From Alphaproteobacteria bacterium (GTDB lineage: Bacteria; Pseudomonadota; Alphaproteobacteria; Micavibrionales; Micavibrionaceae), in the NCBI GenBank assembly GCA_024279035.1, contig JAJRSA010000013.1:91889-155888 (forward strand): a stretch of 64,000 bases of DNA. Reading direction: 5' to 3'. Positions within the stretch are counted from its first letter, which is position 1, and the number at the start of each line of letters is the position of its first letter. The notes below the pieces were generated by a model. It did not search any database and was not told the origin of the DNA. It saw only the letters and a program-made list of their open reading frames with translations. Of the stretch, positions 8,188 through 60,051 are shown one piece after another. The position numbers and the translations under genes are program-made.

Positions 8188-8604
8188 ATGGCACATGATT
8201 ATGCAGAGAAAAAGATGAGAGAGGCGCTCGTCCAATCGGGAGGGAATGCGACGCAGGCGCAGAGGATTTTGATTGAGTGGGCGTTGGACGATCAGATTTT
8301 ACTCATTGCTCTGACCCAACATCATCTCAAAGGGATTGTGGCGCATGCGATTGAACGGACGATTTCCAAAGATAAGCCTGAGCGCGAGAAAATTTCTAAA
8401 CCCCAGACAAAACCTGAGCCCATTGATATGCCTCCTGAAAGCTTTGGGCGGGATCTTTTGAAGGCTCTGTCAGGGCGCAACAGCATCCGTTTTGGTTTGG
8501 AGGGGGCGAGTGGTCGTCCTATTGTCACACGACGTAAACAAGCCTCTCAGCAACATATTGATGCGTTGAAAAGTATGTCCTCTATTCCCCCTAAAGAGTC
8601 CTAA
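8188..8604 (+). CDS. Hypothetical protein (138 aa) downstream of flhA
   Basis: Clean ORF with a GAGAGG RBS-like sequence upstream. No motif recognised. Confidence 0.45.
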   Translation: MAHDYAEKKMREALVQSGGNATQAQRILIEWALDDQILLIALTQHHLKGIVAHAIERTISKDKPEREKISKPQTKPEPIDMPPESFGRDLLKALSGRNSIRFGLEGASGRPIVTRRKQASQQHIDALKSMSSIPPKES

Positions 8605-8644
8605 AAAAGATCGTTTGCTTTTATGAGGTTCCATACCACACACA

Positions 8645-8773
8645 GTCATCCCCGAGGACATGCACAGCATGTCTTAAACGTCGGGGATCCATATGTCAGT
8701 GACAACGCCACTGCCTTTATAGAGAAAGAGTGGATTCCTGCCTTCGCAGGAATGACGGAGGGTGGCAGGATGA
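8645..8773 (+). repeat. Composite palindromic repeat, family B (three hairpins plus a partial extra arm), intergenic copy
   Basis: GTCATCCCCGAGGACATGCACAGCATGTCTTAAACGTCGGGGATC, a CAGTG...CACTG hairpin, GGATTCCTGCCTTCGCAGGAATGAC, then GGCAGGATGAC. Collinear with the reverse complement of 13982-14090. Confidence 0.75.
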
Positions 8774-8779
8774 CGGAGG

Positions 8780-12145
<3,366 letters not shown>

Positions 12146-12909
12146 CAGATGTATTTTAAAGGTGAGTGTAACGTGTATTCCTATGCCCATTCTGCCATAA
12201 TTTTTGTTTATGTACAGGTAAAAGAGTGTGTGAGATGTTGGATATCTATAATTTTAAGAGTAATGGTGAGGGAGAACACCCTCATGGGCCAAGGGGAAAG
12301 CACCTTTGCGATGTATAGAGTGTCTTTAATCTATCGCAAAGGCCTAATTTATATTTTATGTATAGTTATTGTTGAGCTCAGGAGATTTTTGAGATAGCCT
12401 TAGTCTCTTTTGACTGGAGGGCCAGCATTGATTTCCTACAGAATACGTGCTTGACTCTATAGTAACTTTAACCTGATAAGGAAAACTTATATCCAACGCA
12501 TCACATTGAATGATTTTAGCCTGTACCCATTCCATCATCCCAAAACTCAACAGCTGTTCCAACGGAAGGAGGCCAAGTGTGTCGTGCACTTGCGGTTTGT
12601 GTATGCGATGTGCCTGTATCTGTGATTTCAATAGAACTTGTAAAGGACTGCGTTGCCGTTGCCTGCTCTGCACGCAACATTTTTAATGCCTCTTCTGCCA
12701 CAACTCTGCCACAACATTGAACTCTAATTTTTTTTGTTTAATACCCTCTAAAGATGGTCTTCTAAACCCTAATTTACTCATTGATACGCTCCTGTTTTTT
12801 TTGAATAAGTAAAATCTGTAGTATCTATATGTCCATACATCAAGAGGAAAATAAAATGTAAAGTTTTTTCCTCTCCACATTCCTCCCTAACCCTGCTACA
12901 ACGCTTTTC

Positions 12910-15900
12910 ATGAGTGAGGCAAGCGATGTAATATATGGGGCGATTGAGGGGCAGGATGCGCGGATTATGGCGGATTTGGCGCGTCAGATTATGGCGGATG
13001 ATCGTGTTTTAATTCATATTGCGCTGGATGATCGGCGCATTCAAACACTCAGAAGTGCGCTGAAATTCTTTGCGCCTGATGTTCAGATCTCTGTCTTTCC
13101 CGCGTGGGATTGTTTGCCCTATGATCGGGTATCACCAAGCTCTGACCTTGTGGCACATCGTGTGTCTACCTTGTGTAAATTATTGAAGTGGCGTGACGCA
13201 AAAAAACGCGTGCCTCGTATTCTGCTTACAACCACCAATGCCGCGCTTCAAAAAGTAACCCCTGTGACGGCGTTTCAAGAGGCGGGCTTTATGGGACGAA
13301 AGGGAGGTGTTTTTGAGCAAGACAAAGCCCTTAATTTCCTCATCAAAAGCGGATATATCCGCACAGACACGGTGCGAGAAGCAGGAGAATTTGCTATTCG
13401 TGGCGGGATTGTTGATATTTTCCCCGCAGGCAAAGTACGTCCCATTCGTTTGGATCTCTTTGGGGATGAGATCGAAAGCATTAAGGCGTTTGATCCGCTC
13501 ACTCAGAGGAGTATCAAAGAGCTTGGGCAGTTTTCTCTTATTCCTGCTACAGAGTTCTTTTTAGATAAGGCCTCGATAGAAACATTCAGAGGGCAGTATC
13601 GAGATTTATTCGGCATGAAACAAAGTCACGATCCTCTCTATGAAGCGGTCAGCCAAGGGCGACGCTATAACGGAATGGATCACTGGATGCCGTTGTTTTT
13701 TGAGGGCGGAGAGATGGCCACGCTGTTTGACTATGCCGATAATCCGATGGTCACTCAAGATCTCCACGCCCAACAAGCCCACAGTGAACGATGGGAGCAA
13801 ATCACAGATTTATATGCAACGCGCAAAACATTGGAGCAAGCAGGGGCGCATAAGAAAAAATCACACGATATTAGTTTGACAGGCGCGAAGTATCATCCCA
13901 TTACCCCTGAGAGTCTGTATTTGGAATATTTACCGTGTGAGGCTCTTGTTTTGAGCCCTTTTAAAAATCCCACCCAACGGTGTCATACCCGCGAAGGCGG
14001 GTATCCGGACCAGAATAAAGACAGTCGCGAAGCGACTGACAGACCCAGATCCCCGACGATAGACATGCGTGGCATGTCCTCGGGGATGACAGAGGAGAGA
14101 GAGGCGCACAAGGTGAGAAGCTTTGCCGATATACGGGCGGATTCTGAGCAGGATTTATTTCGCTTTATACGAGACTATTGCATTGATTTTCAGGTGCAAA
14201 AGAAAAAGATTCTGATCTCTGCCTATAGCCAAGGGGCACGGGATCGCTTGAAGGGACTCCTCGAAGGGGGAGGGTTTGACACGCTTAGAGAGTGTGCGGG
14301 ACAAGACGATCTTAAAAAACTCACCTCGCCCCAAATCGGCATGACTATTCTGGCCTTGGATGAGGGGTTTGTCGCCCCTGATCTGGCAGTGCTCACGGAA
14401 CAAGACATTCTAGGAGATCGTCTTGTGCGGAGCCGTAAAAAACGTAAAAAAGCCGATAATTTTCTTAAAGAAGTCTCTTCTCTCAACGAAGGAGATCTTG
14501 TGGTGCATATTGATCACGGGGTCGGGCGCTTTATCGGGTTAGAGACCATTAAAGCGGCTGGCACACTTCATGATTGTCTCGTTGTGTCCTATGCAGGCGA
14601 TGACAAGCTCTTCGTGCCTGTTGAAAATATTGATGTGTTGTCTCGTTATGGATCAGAGGAGAGCGCGGGACAGGTGGATAAACTTGGAGGGGTAAGCTGG
14701 CAAGCGCGCAAAACCAAGATCAAAAAAGATTTGATGCGTATTGCAGATCACCTCATGAAAATTGCGGCAGCGCGAGAACTCCGTGAAGGAGAAAAGTTGA
14801 GTGTTGATGAAGAGTCCTATCAAAATTTTATCTCTCATTTCCCGTATCAGGAAACAGAAGATCAGTTGCGTGCGATTGAAGAGTCTCTTGGGGATATGAA
14901 TTCTGGGCGTCCGATGGATCGCTTGATCTGCGGAGATGTCGGGTTTGGAAAAACAGAGATAGCCATTCGTGCTGCCTATGTAGCCGCGATGAGTGGAGTC
15001 CAAGTCGCCGTCATTGCCCCCACAACCTTACTGGTGCGCCAACATGCCCTTAATTTTCAAGAGCGTTTTAAAGGCACAGGGATCCGCGTTGACCAACTCT
15101 CTCGCTTTGTCTCGACGAAAGAGGCGCAATCTACAAAAGAAGGGTTGCGGACGGGGGCGGTTAATATAGTTGTGGGCACACATGCACTTCTCGCGGAAAG
15201 CATTAAGTTTAATAATCTCGGTTTGGTTGTTGTCGATGAAGAGCAACGCTTTGGCGTAAAACAAAAAGAACGTCTCAAGAATTTACGTGCCGATGTGCAT
15301 ATCCTGACGATGACGGCCACCCCCATTCCACGGACATTGCAAATGTCTTTGGCAGGGGTCAAAGAGATGAGCATTATTGCCACGCCTCCTGTGGATCGCC
15401 TTGCTATTCGGACGTTTGTTCTCCCTTTTGACGGGATGGTGATCCGAGAAGCGCTCTTGCGGGAATATCACCGAGGGGGACAGTCTTTTTATGTGTGTCC
15501 ACGCGTAAAAGATATCCGTGAACTTGAAAAGCATCTCAAAGAGCTTGTGCCAGAGCTTCGTATTGTCGCAGCGCATGGACAAATGACGGCGAGGGATCTA
15601 GAAGATCGGATGAATGCCTTTATTGATAAGCAGTATGATGTGTTACTCGCGACCAATATCATTGAAAGCGGAATCGATATTCCCACCGCCAATACCATGA
15701 TTGTCCATCGCGCGGATATGTTTGGCTTGGCACAGCTTTACCAGATCAGAGGACGCATAGGGCGCTCGAAAGTACGGGCTTACGCCTATCTGACCTATAC
15801 CCCTAATAAGAAACTCACCGCTCAAGCGCAAAAGCGTCTGGAAATTTTGGAAACGCTGGATACCCTCGGCGCTGGATTTCAATTGGCCAGTCACGACATG

Positions 15901-16491
15901 GATATTCGAGGCGCTGGAAACTTGGTCGGAGAAGAGCAATCAGGACATATTAAAGAGGTCGGCGTTGAGCTCTATCAGCACCTCCTTGAAGAGGCCGTGG
16001 CCGCTGCGCGTGCAGGTGTGGATATGACAGATCTTCCAGAAGACACGGACTGGACAGTCAATATCAATCTTGGGACATCCATCCTTATCCCAGAACAATA
16101 CGTATCGGATTTATCTGTTCGTATGAGTCTCTATCGTCGTCTTCCTGATCTTGAGAGCGCACGAGAGATTGAAATTTTCGCCGCCGAAATGATTGACCGT
16201 TTTGGGGATCTTCCCGAAGAAGTCCAAAACCTCCTCGATATCACAAAAATCAAACAACTCTGCAAAAAAGCTGGCATAGACCGCATCGACGCAGGCCCTA
16301 AAGGCGCGCTCATCGGATTTCGAAACGACACCCCTCCCAACCCTGAGACACTCATCCAATGGATCACCGCCCAAAAAGGCACCTCCAAACTCCGCCCCGA
16401 TCAAAGGATTTCAATCGTAAGAGGCTGGGAACAGCCGAAACAAAGGGTAAAAGGCGTATGGACTATTGTGAAACAGATGAGTGGGGTGTAA
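12910..16491 (+). CDS. mfd: Transcription-repair coupling factor Mfd
   Basis: 1193 aa. CarD/RID motif DLVVHIDHGVGRF and SF2 motifs GDVGFGKTE, VVDEEQRFG, TATPIPRT, QLYQIRGRIGRS. C-terminal TRCF domain. Confidence 0.96.
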   Translation: MSEASDVIYGAIEGQDARIMADLARQIMADDRVLIHIALDDRRIQTLRSALKFFAPDVQISVFPAWDCLPYDRVSPSSDLVAHRVSTLCKLLKWRDAKKRVPRILLTTTNAALQKVTPVTAFQEAGFMGRKGGVFEQDKALNFLIKSGYIRTDTVREAGEFAIRGGIVDIFPAGKVRPIRLDLFGDEIESIKAFDPLTQRSIKELGQFSLIPATEFFLDKASIETFRGQYRDLFGMKQSHDPLYEAVSQGRRYNGMDHWMPLFFEGGEMATLFDYADNPMVTQDLHAQQAHSERWEQITDLYATRKTLEQAGAHKKKSHDISLTGAKYHPITPESLYLEYLPCEALVLSPFKNPTQRCHTREGGYPDQNKDSREATDRPRSPTIDMRGMSSGMTEEREAHKVRSFADIRADSEQDLFRFIRDYCIDFQVQKKKILISAYSQGARDRLKGLLEGGGFDTLRECAGQDDLKKLTSPQIGMTILALDEGFVAPDLAVLTEQDILGDRLVRSRKKRKKADNFLKEVSSLNEGDLVVHIDHGVGRFIGLETIKAAGTLHDCLVVSYAGDDKLFVPVENIDVLSRYGSEESAGQVDKLGGVSWQARKTKIKKDLMRIADHLMKIAAARELREGEKLSVDEESYQNFISHFPYQETEDQLRAIEESLGDMNSGRPMDRLICGDVGFGKTEIAIRAAYVAAMSGVQVAVIAPTTLLVRQHALNFQERFKGTGIRVDQLSRFVSTKEAQSTKEGLRTGAVNIVVGTHALLAESIKFNNLGLVVVDEEQRFGVKQKERLKNLRADVHILTMTATPIPRTLQMSLAGVKEMSIIATPPVDRLAIRTFVLPFDGMVIREALLREYHRGGQSFYVCPRVKDIRELEKHLKELVPELRIVAAHGQMTARDLEDRMNAFIDKQYDVLLATNIIESGIDIPTANTMIVHRADMFGLAQLYQIRGRIGRSKVRAYAYLTYTPNKKLTAQAQKRLEILETLDTLGAGFQLASHDMDIRGAGNLVGEEQSGHIKEVGVELYQHLLEEAVAAARAGVDMTDLPEDTDWTVNINLGTSILIPEQYVSDLSVRMSLYRRLPDLESAREIEIFAAEMIDRFGDLPEEVQNLLDITKIKQLCKKAGIDRIDAGPKGALIGFRNDTPPNPETLIQWITAQKGTSKLRPDQRISIVRGWEQPKQRVKGVWTIVKQMSGV
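13982..14090 (-). repeat. Family B composite palindromic repeat inserted in frame inside mfd
   Basis: Three consecutive hairpins (ATACCCGC/GCGGGTAT, CAGTCGC/GCGACTG, ATCCCCGA...TCGGGGAT with an inner CATGC/GCATG). The reverse complement is collinear with 8645-8756. Translated as QRCHTREGGYPDQNKDSREATDRPRSPTIDMRGMSSGMT. Confidence 0.75.
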
Positions 16492-22275: not shown

Positions 22276-23600
22276 GAGGGTTTCCCCTCAAAACTCTCAA
22301 ACAATTTCTGTGCTTTATCTAACGTTTCTTGATACTCCTCTTCAGGATCAGAGTCGGCCACAATCCCTCCGCCTGAAGAGAGATAGACGGAGGTGTCTTT
22401 AAATATCAGCGTGCGGATGAGGATGTTCATGTCCAGAGTGCCGTCAAAGCCGAGTGTGCCAAGTGAGCCACAATAGGCATGGCGGCGGACGGGTTCGATC
22501 TCGTCGATAATTTCCATGGCGCGGATTTTAGGTGCACCCGAGATCGAGCCTCCAGGGAAACAGGTGCGCAGGAGGTCGAGGGCGGTGTGCTCTGACTTGA
22601 GAGTGCCTGTGACTTTTGAGACCAGATGATGGACGTTGGCGTAGCTTTTGAGAGTGCACAGCTCTGGGACATTTATAGAGTCGGCCTGACAGGTGCGGGA
22701 GAGATCATTGCGGAGGAGATCCACAATCATAATATTTTCAGCACGGTTTTTCTCACTTTTTTGAAGGTGAGTGGGATCAGTATGACGGGGCGCTGTGCCT
22801 TTAATGGGGGAGGTTTCGACCTCTCCTTTGTGAGTGAGGGTTAAAAACTGTTCGGGGGAATTACTAGAGATGATGATGTCTCCTGTCTTCATATAGCACG
22901 CATAGGGCGCAGGGCTGAGAATGCGCAGATGGCAATAATGGGCATAAGGATCAAAATCATCGGGGAGAGGGGCTGTAAATCTCTGGGCAAGGCAGGCTTG
23001 GAAAATGTCACCAGCGTGAATGTAGTCAATCACCTTTTGAATGGAGGCTTTATAGCCTTCTTTTGTTTGGTCGGGAGTCCATATGAGGGAGGGAGACTTT
23101 GCAGGCGATCGTTTTTTCTGTTGAAGACGTATTTCTAGTGCTTGAAAATGGTTCTGTGCCTGAGATTCACTCGGGGCGGTGACAAAAAAGGAGAGGATCT
23201 GTGTCTTATGGTGAAAGACGAGAACTTTGAGATAGACCCCCACACTTATATCAGGGAGCGAAAAGCTGTCTCGTGCCTGAGAGGGCATTTTTTCTGTCGC
23301 GCGTCCGAGATCATAGCTAAATAGTCCCGCGAGACCTCCTGTAAAATAAGGGTGCTCTGCGTGTGTCTCTGGAGCATAGCGTGTGAGGAGTGTTTGGAGG
23401 TGTTTAAATGGAACCTCTGTTGGCTGAGTGGCTTTAAAGTCGAATGTCTCTATGGGATCAAACGCAATGATGCTCACAGGCGTATCTGCGTATTCTCGAT
23501 CCAAAAAAAGAGCATCAGGCTGATCCGCAAACAGCGTAAAGACTGTCTGGGGGGGCTGATAAGGATAGGATGTGCAATATGTTTTCATGTGTACCGTCAT
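22272..23600 (-). CDS. pabB: Aminodeoxychorismate synthase component I
   Basis: 442 aa. Chorismate-binding motifs PGGSISGAPK and YCGSLG. The first ATG lies inside repeat 23596-23663; an alternative start is Met5 at 23588. Confidence 0.85.
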   Translation of the reverse strand: MTVHMKTYCTSYPYQPPQTVFTLFADQPDALFLDREYADTPVSIIAFDPIETFDFKATQPTEVPFKHLQTLLTRYAPETHAEHPYFTGGLAGLFSYDLGRATEKMPSQARDSFSLPDISVGVYLKVLVFHHKTQILSFFVTAPSESQAQNHFQALEIRLQQKKRSPAKSPSLIWTPDQTKEGYKASIQKVIDYIHAGDIFQACLAQRFTAPLPDDFDPYAHYCHLRILSPAPYACYMKTGDIIISSNSPEQFLTLTHKGEVETSPIKGTAPRHTDPTHLQKSEKNRAENIMIVDLLRNDLSRTCQADSINVPELCTLKSYANVHHLVSKVTGTLKSEHTALDLLRTCFPGGSISGAPKIRAMEIIDEIEPVRRHAYCGSLGTLGFDGTLDMNILIRTLIFKDTSVYLSSGGGIVADSDPEEEYQETLDKAQKLFESFEGKPS

Positions 23601-23663
23601 CCTGAAGGTGTTTCAGGATCTCATGCCTCTATTCACCAGATCCTGAAACACGTTCAGGATGAC
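23596..23663. repeat. Family A double-hairpin palindromic repeat (GTCATCCTGAA...TTCAGGATGAC)
   Basis: 68 nt, with terminal inverted GTCATCCTGAA/TTCAGGATGAC and each half itself a hairpin. About 85 percent identical by eye to 59983-60051. Confidence 0.8.
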
Positions 23664-37998: not shown

Positions 37999-38124
37999 AC
38001 CCCTAAAATAGCAGGAAAAGCTTAATAAATGCTAAAAATTTATAGTTTTTCTTTGTTTTTTAAGGGGTTGAGGGGGGCTGTATGGCAGTCTGTTATCATT
38101 ATGTTTTTCAAGAAAAACAGTCCA

Positions 38125-38166
38125 GATCCCCGCCTTCGCGGGGATGACATGTGGGGCGGGGATGAC
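38125..38166 (+). repeat. Partial family B repeat arm (GATCCCCGCCTTCGCGGGGATGAC plus GGCGGGGATGAC)
   Basis: Same arm-plus-half-arm layout as 8732-8773 (GGATTCCTGCCTTCGCAGGAATGAC ... GGCAGGATGAC), with compensatory stem changes. Confidence 0.6.
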
Positions 38167-59982: not shown

Positions 59983-60051
59983 GTCATCCTGAACTTGTTT
60001 TAGGATCTCCTGCATATATTCTACCAGATCCTGAAACAAGTTCAGGATGAC
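59983..60051. repeat. Family A double-hairpin palindromic repeat
   Basis: GTCATCCTGAACTTGTTTTAGGATC...GATCCTGAAACAAGTTCAGGATGAC. Sister copy of 23596-23663. Lies between convergent acnA and the LpoA-like gene. Confidence 0.8.

Follow-up and report, generated by a model that had tools for sequence, protein, structure and literature searches.

CGTC-Tagged Repeats and Related Palindromes

Short palindromic repeats of the CGTC-tagged REP (repetitive extragenic palindrome) type predominate in Alphaproteobacteria, and Micavibrio hosts their first family, CGTC-1 (Di Nocera, De Gregorio and Rocco, 2013, BMC Genomics 14:522; PMC3733652). Each unit has an unpaired CGTC tag (often TGTC; also CCTC), an 8–9-bp stem starting with A-T, and a CCA tail, with a loop of 4 nt in family 1 and of 5 nt in families 2–4. 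The units mostly form head-to-head (HH) dimers with the tags outside, and the HH spacers (20–100 bp) are conserved, some containing small stem-loops. The Neisseria repeat dRS3 and the Rickettsia palindromic element (RPE) RPE-6 of R. conorii are members of CGTC-1, and RPE-4 of the latter species is a member of CGTC-4. Intragenic REPs are frequent in genes for DNA synthesis and repair, such as uvrA/B, uvrD, polA, recBCD, and dnaE (Di Nocera et al., 2013). Here, we describe a 111-nt block of the same superfamily that lies in frame within mfd, the gene for the transcription-repair coupling factor. It is found at positions 13981–14091 of a 64,000-nt stretch (the window) of contig JAJRSA010000013.1 from an alphaproteobacterium of the Micavibrionaceae (GCA_024279035.1).

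The NTS of Neisseria, defined as CGTCATTCCCGCGMAVGCGGGAATCYRG (Chenal et al., 2025, Nat Commun 16:2388; PMC11893778), agrees with the hairpin of CGTC-1 in its tag, dRS3 stem core, and 4-nt loop. SsnA, a small GIY-YIG nuclease, binds and cuts the NTS as single-stranded DNA (ssDNA), and ssnA is often flanked by the motif (Chenal et al., 2025). The search sequence for the Ssn-related motif (SRM), given in the same study, is HGTCWYN(0-2)YYVSBRHN(0-5)WNVSBRGN(0-2)RNCYNB.

A Palindromic Insert in mfd

The block (TGTCAT...ATGACA) occupies codons 358–394 of mfd in phase 0 and is free of stop codons. It encodes the 37-residue peptide CHTREGGYPDQNKDSREATDRPRSPTIDMRGMSSGMT. A preliminary description of the window had proposed an in-frame, stop-free addition of about 37 residues, and this holds, except that the 39-aa string it gave included the native residues QR. 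The comparison with orthologs that it had suggested as a check gives an exact gap: the three closest Mfd orthologs (76–78% identity), found among 5.8 billion clusters, lack exactly these 37 residues in the protein alignment. Alignment of the DNA with the mfd genes of the relatives L001–L003 likewise shows a single clean gap of 111 nt, with the flanks aligned codon for codon. Around the junction, the residues are N P T Q R (37 aa) E E R E A in the window protein, compared with N P A L E E R N E A in L001.

In 36 kb of DNA from the relatives, the element had no copy. A search with the insert peptide, which detects only copies in the same frame and orientation, found the genome's own Mfd as the sole match among proteins of 656–2088 aa in the 5.8 billion clusters, and nothing among proteins of 185–590 aa. 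A second contig, from a separate Logan assembly of the source run, crosses the mfd site with 0 differences and no joint. As part of an explanation that we hold to be highly probable as a whole (see below), the block would have entered mfd once this lineage had separated from the nearest relatives sampled. It is hardly credible that these residues represent a native, fast-evolving linker or an assembly chimera without any insertion: the block ends exactly where other copies of the repeat end, is collinear with a sister copy at E 3e-13, has a GC content of 0.54–0.59 against ~0.45 in its surroundings, and is spanned without differences or joints by the separate contig, even though the linker in which it lies (between the Mfd domains D1b and D3) is variable in length, another lineage has extra residues there, and the one run in which the sequence occurs probably represents the source sample.

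The three hairpins reported in the preliminary description were all recovered, at 13985–14004, 14022–14038, and 14049–14087 (Table 1). The left hairpin has arms at 13985–13992/13997–14004 (8 bp) and a GAAG loop. The arms of the right hairpin lie at 14049–14059/14077–14087, and its 23-nt loop contains a nested 7-bp hairpin (14062–14068/14072–14078, GACATGC/GCATGTC). In the small hairpin of the spacer, a double change relative to both the sister copy and the family consensus preserves the pairing. The whole block is predicted to fold with -48.1 kcal/mol (z -5.4) as RNA and with -29.6 kcal/mol (z -5.8) as DNA, and none of 200 shuffled sequences folded as well. Three of the six reading frames of the mfd copy are open. 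The equivalent frame of the sister copy holds a TAA that is missing from the mfd copy through small indels, which fits the idea that only stop-free copies with a length that is a multiple of three survive in such a place.

Other readings of the structure were considered separately. An intrinsic terminator inside mfd was ruled out, as no U-tract follows any hairpin on the mfd sense strand. An intein, an intron, or a bypass element is not needed, since the frame is open and such features are absent. Rfam, searched at a permissive threshold over 8400–14400, returned no family. Antisense to mfd, the spacer hairpin at 14022–14038 runs into a T-rich tail, TCTTTATTCT, and has a terminator-like score; the spacer module of the sister copy points at the 3' end of the upstream gene, where there is no terminator-like score.

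Table 1. Repeat units and host gene in the 64,000-nt window.
Feature	Position	Strand	Basis
111-nt in-frame insert; tags-outward (head-to-head) heterodimer of CGTC-tagged REP units with structured spacer	13981..14091	+	gap in relatives, contig ends, fold
Left unit: TGTC tag, 8-bp stem ATACCCGC/GCGGGTAT, loop GAAG, tail CCG; CGTC-1/NTS/SRM type	13981..14008	+	unit scan, SRM match
Small spacer stem-loop CAGTCGC-GAA-GCGACTG	14022..14038	+	arms 14022–14028/14032–14038, 7 bp
Right unit, inverted: TGTC tag, 8-bp stem ATCCCCGA/TCGGGGAT, 23-nt loop, tail CTG	14046..14091	-	hairpin and unit scans
Intergenic sister dimer	8645..8756	-	blastn, nhmmer, two-ended pattern, unit scan
Single CGTC-1/SRM unit ATCCCCGC-GAAG-GCGGGGAT with extra half arm	38122..38166	-	unit scan, SRM match
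Head-to-head dimer of a second CGTC-tagged family (stem ATCCTGAA, 5-nt loop)	23596..23663		unit scan
Second dimer of the second CGTC-tagged family	59983..60051		unit scan
mfd (transcription-repair coupling factor)	12910..16491	+	intact ORF (open reading frame), 1193 aa, host of insert

Copies in the Window and in the Source Run

In reverse complement, the mfd block is collinear with the intergenic sister copy at 8645–8756 (blastn E 3e-13; nhmmer E 2.7e-12), as had been noted from the sequence alone. The two copies differ at 17–26% of positions, with the pairing of all three hairpins preserved. The sister lies 41 nt past the stop codon of the upstream gene on the same strand (8188–8604) and 24 nt ahead of the next gene (8780), and consists of the units CGTC-ATTCCTGC-GAAG-GCAGGAAT-CCA and AGTC-ATCCCCGA-(25-nt loop)-TCGGGGAT-CCA. 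At window position 8702, it has an A where 9 other contigs of the family have a G that would restore a pair of the spacer hairpin; the intergenic sister is thus itself slightly decayed. A pattern requiring both ends of the element occurs in the window only at the mfd and sister sites, against 0 expected.

The two dimers of the second family (CGTC-ATCCTGAA-5-nt loop-TTCAGGAT-CTC/CTG) are the double hairpins that had earlier been labeled "family A." Since these are also CGTC-tagged and head-to-head, the genome holds at least two CGTC REP families. In total, the 64-kb window contains four dimers and one singleton, i.e., nine units, against ~2 loose matches in shuffled sequences.

Many units, in the window and elsewhere, bear an extra left half arm (tag plus one half of the stem, e.g., CGTCATCCCCGC or GTCATCCCCGA) just outside the hairpin or in its loop. 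Examples are seen at 8757–8774 and 38149–38166 and in the unrelated metagenome contigs L135, L140, L141, L149, L167, L173, L180, and L182. Slippage and abortive insertion into a hairpin are candidate origins of the half arms.

In run X1, a DNA run and the one public run holding the window (no RNA run turned up besides it), seven further contig pieces match the mfd copy and end exactly at 13981 and 14091, with depths of ~6.6–18 compared with 8.9 for the mfd contig. A further set of 43 contig pieces matches the sister copy, with a summed depth of ~130 in the spacer against 7–8 in the flanks. From these numbers, the element is judged to be a dispersed repeat with dozens of copies in the source sample. 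The earlier claim, which took the block for one copy of a dispersed repeat and for foreign to mfd, is thus upheld by the sister copy, by the source-run matches with the same ends, and by the gap in three orthologs.

The sharp ends also bear on the possibility of a classical MITE (miniature inverted-repeat transposable element), that is, a deletion derivative of an insertion sequence (IS) moved as double-stranded DNA by the IS transposase via terminal inverted repeats (TIRs), here TGTCATNCCCG. MITEs are recognized by terminal inverted repeats of 15–30 bp, a target-site duplication, and a parent IS. The block is 111 nt long, multi-copy, and sharply bounded, but its imperfect termini are inverted over 11–12 nt only, no target-site duplication is visible at the mfd site, and no parent IS with these ends was seen in the window. 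Moreover, each of the putative TIRs is half of a hairpin unit that is complete in itself, and such units are also seen alone (38122–38149) and in other pairings, and the termini match the cross-phylum CGTC/NTS motif rather than any IS end. A MITE origin is therefore highly improbable.

Family Assignment

In tag, stem, and tail, the block follows the CGTC pattern. TGTC is the tag of both mfd units and of the singleton, and CGTC and AGTC are found on the sister copy. The stems ATACCCGC/GCGGGTAT and ATCCCCGA/TCGGGGAT are each 8 bp long and without mismatch, and the 4-nt GAAG loop of the left unit fits CGTC-1. The mfd copy ends its two units with the tails CCG and CTG, where the sister has CCA in both, and the tails pair with each other in the consensus fold. 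The SRM search sequence matches 13981–14008 (+) and 38122–38149 (-) in the window (mean of 0.22 per window in shuffled sequences), with no match to the right unit or to the left unit of the sister. The left unit, TGTCATACCCGCGAAGGCGGGTATCCGG, differs from the NTS consensus only at the first base of the tag and at one compensated stem pair. Judged by these motifs, the block is a member of the CGTC-tagged REP/NTS-SRM superfamily and represents no new family.

With the HH dimers of CGTC-1, the block shares the C/TGTC tag, the 8-bp stem starting with A-T, the 4-nt loop (in its left unit), the CCA-type tail, the tags-outward arrangement, and the conserved 20–100-bp spacer with a small stem-loop. 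Intergenic copies near the 3' end of an upstream ORF, and in-frame copies in genes of DNA synthesis and repair, are common to both. The block differs in the loop of the right unit, which is 23–25 nt long with a hairpin of its own compared with 4–5 nt, and in encoding 37 aa compared with the usual 20–30 aa. In addition, mfd is not among the REP-bearing repair genes named in the text and accessible supplements of Di Nocera et al. (2013). As to the NTS/SRM, in-frame coding copies are not treated by Chenal et al. (2025), and a role in natural transformation is neither known nor implied for the mfd block.

The behavior of the block is that which defines RPEs, and in particular resembles RPE-6 and RPE-4: a palindromic repeat lies in frame in a conserved housekeeping gene, is missing from orthologs, and is presumably translated as an extra surface segment. 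The RPE-like behavior claimed in the preliminary description is therefore borne out. It had further suggested an independent or related family; the repeat is related, through the CGTC superfamily that includes RPE-6 and RPE-4 according to Di Nocera et al. (2013), and it is not independent, being already described in kind. At the sequence level, Rickettsia-group genomes share the terminal hairpin only, and one metagenome-assembled genome (MAG) of the Rickettsiaceae shares the layout of the heterodimer.

The GTAG REPs and REPINs, which are linked to RAYTs (IS200/IS605-type Y1 transposases), resemble the block in having hairpins with an unpaired 5' tag and no target duplication; in both, the mobile unit is likely to be an inverted doublet and is presumably recognized in the form of folded single strands. 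However, the block carries CGTC/TGTC instead of GTAG, and CGTC REPs are not known to be associated with RAYTs (Di Nocera et al., 2013). Membership in the REPIN-RAYT group was rejected, the tag being C/TGTC.

The Host Protein and the D1b-D3 Linker

Pfam detects the full set of domains in the 1193-aa Mfd (UvrB_inter 131–216, MFD_D3 431–499, CarD_TRCF_RID 525–580, DEAD, Helicase_C, and TRCF), and solved Mfd structures in the PDB match it at E 7e-241. The motor and TRCF motifs all fall in invariant columns of the Mfd protein alignment. The domains of Mfd are all intact despite the insert. The closest Mfd relatives come from Micavibrio-like MAGs, not from Rickettsia, and the host is a free-living-type flagellated alphaproteobacterium.

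In an AlphaFold2 (AF2) model, the insert follows the last D1b strand and a short helix (E345–349, H354–357) and precedes D3 (H406 onward). The earlier placement between the UvrB-homology module and the RNA polymerase-interaction domain can be made more exact: the insert lies between D1b and D3, and the RNA polymerase-interaction domain starts only at ~residue 525. The mean predicted local distance difference test score (pLDDT) of 10-residue blocks is 86 and 83 over 331–350 and 49 over 351–360, and residues 356–400 are modeled as coil with pLDDT <30 between the well-modeled D1b and D3. The linker differs in length among the Mfd proteins in the protein alignment, and residues 278–479 of the window Mfd gave no phmmer alignment to E. 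coli Mfd. The structure prediction, which had also been suggested as a check, thus agrees with a coil linker; with an alignment of 16 sequences behind the model, the support for a flexible or disordered surface loop is weak.

An unrelated GC-rich nested palindrome, AACTCCCCCTCCCGTTTACGGGGGGGATAAAGGGGGGGAGTT, occurs in the same D1b-D3 linker of a different Mfd lineage (L124:1609–1650, in the mfd of relative P0012, ENA ERZ26222911), where it encodes ~15 aa, QLPLPFTGGIKGGSL. Because an unrelated palindrome is present at the same linker in another lineage, the observation suggests that this site is repeatedly permissive.

Proposed Origin of the Insert

From the evidence above, it is very likely that a tags-outward CGTC-tagged REP dimer was inserted into the mfd linker and is translated as a disordered loop of 37 residues, leaving Mfd intact. 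In this proposal, a non-coding hairpin repeat (a CGTC-tagged dimer of the NTS/SRM type) would have entered mfd between two codons. Its length of 111 nt (3 × 37) and the absence of a stop in the mfd frame would have preserved the reading frame, and its landing place would be the length-variable linker between the UvrB-homology module (D1a-D2-D1b) and D3. The disordered loop and the intact Mfd would follow from the inter-codon site, the length, the stop-free frame, and the variable linker. The insertion itself, its exact ends, the family features, the presence of multiple copies, and the tolerance of the landing place are shown by the data. The unit would probably be recognized as a folded single strand by a hairpin-specific enzyme acting in trans, either a small GIY-YIG Ssn nuclease or a Y1 transposase; this route of movement is probable by analogy with REP/REPIN-RAYT and NTS-SsnA. 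Neutrality, rather than usefulness, is the most likely reason for the survival of the coding copy.

Several points weigh against this proposal. A target-site duplication at the mfd site is not visible, and the flanks are too diverged to define the target. The 23-nt loop of the right unit lies outside the four published CGTC families. CGTC REPs have no known dedicated transposase (Di Nocera et al., 2013), and the element could not be linked to any transposase or ssn gene. Within the window, no ssn gene was found, although the test behind this, a GIY-YIG regular expression without a match in any of the six frames, is a weak one. A low pLDDT is expected for any segment without homologs in a 16-sequence alignment. 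Finally, run X1 is a metagenome and probably the source sample of the assembly, and thus not independent evidence, and the summed contig depth may include other organisms.

A useful rather than neutral copy is an alternative. The loop might have a role in Mfd, for example by tuning the autoinhibitory D2-D7 clamp or by recruiting UvrA, or the nucleic-acid structure might regulate mfd through pausing of the ribosome or polymerase, RNase processing, or antisense termination. The RNA/DNA structure of the block is indeed very stable, and the pairing of three hairpins has been preserved in a coding region at 17–26% divergence from the sister, but the intergenic copies share this pairing, so that its conservation reflects the family rather than mfd. 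The resemblance of the minus-strand spacer hairpin and T-rich tail to a terminator, together with the recurrent link between intragenic REPs and repair genes noted by Di Nocera et al. (2013), would also favor co-option; nonetheless, of all the Mfd proteins sampled, only that of one genome has the insertion, and the peptide is low-complexity-like and modeled as coil. Co-option of the block is accordingly quite unlikely.

With insertion of a neutral REP dimer as the preferred explanation, no new kind of element is at hand, and the in-frame presence of the superfamily in repair genes has already been published. What is added is modest: mfd as a host, an exactly bounded insert with empty sites in relatives, and a recurrent heterodimer of a short-loop and a long-loop unit. 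With the first, transcription-coupled nucleotide excision repair joins the published hosts uvrA, uvrB, uvrD, polA, recBCD, and dnaE. The second provides a 37-codon example of known limits and marks the D1b-D3 linker of Mfd as tolerating 37 extra residues. The third would be a natural substrate for asking whether Ssn nucleases or another enzyme move such repeats.

Spread of the Heterodimer and Other In-Frame Copies

A two-ended degenerate pattern matched at least 120 loci from many phyla among species-representative genomes; it is too permissive, having only the terminal hairpin common to all loci, and the genome of the window is not among the matches listed. Neisseria, Sphingomonas, Dyella, Rickettsia-group endosymbionts, Dehalococcoidia, Binatia, and others are among them. 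The exact pattern of the right unit gave 0 matches in JGI metagenomes. Long-loop units with its tag and stem are abundant there, with TGTC/CGTC tags and CCA as the commonest tail, and in many of them the loop forms a nested hairpin.

The whole layout of the heterodimer is also found in two metagenome contigs (L133 and L170) and in the Rickettsiaceae MAG (L105). In the consensus fold, the tags (GTC/GAC) and the tails (CCA/TGG) are paired, as are all hairpins, and 9 of 29 pairs have double changes that keep the pair. The compensatory changes fall in the left stem and the nested hairpin; four of the six aligned sequences were chosen by a pattern that fixes the right stem, which is therefore uninformative. 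From these alignments, a heterodimer of a short-loop and a long-loop unit is seen to recur across distant bacteria.

These features invite a bolder proposal, which we put forward tentatively and with rather low expectation. The heterodimer, made of a short-loop SRM unit and a long-loop nested-hairpin unit, with tails pairing across the spacer and GTC/GAC tags pairing at the base, could be what actually moves in an ssDNA system of the Ssn type (GIY-YIG) or of another hairpin-specific kind, which would parallel REPIN-RAYT for the CGTC repeats. The D1b-D3 linker of Mfd would then be a safe place in which such units land repeatedly. Exact ends, compensatory changes across unrelated organisms, and the second, unrelated palindrome at the same linker hint at it. 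If true, a safe landing site would help explain the excess of such repeats in DNA-repair genes.

At least two of the 126 dimer-pattern matches listed for other genomes are truly intragenic. In Candidatus Ferrigenium altingense (JAHRYS010000003.1; L117:2345–2447, - strand), a CGTC-type REP dimer lies in frame in mutL, where it adds ~35 residues (SSFRRRPESS...GLRRND) between DNA_mis_repair and MutL_C, again an interdomain linker of a repair gene. In a Propionibacteriaceae MAG (JAISTC010000216.1; L056:835–932, - strand), a REP dimer is situated exactly between a BPD_transp_1 permease domain and an ABC_tran ATPase domain, both of which are contained in one ORF of 505–530 aa. An open repeat in a former intergenic spacer may here have fused two genes.

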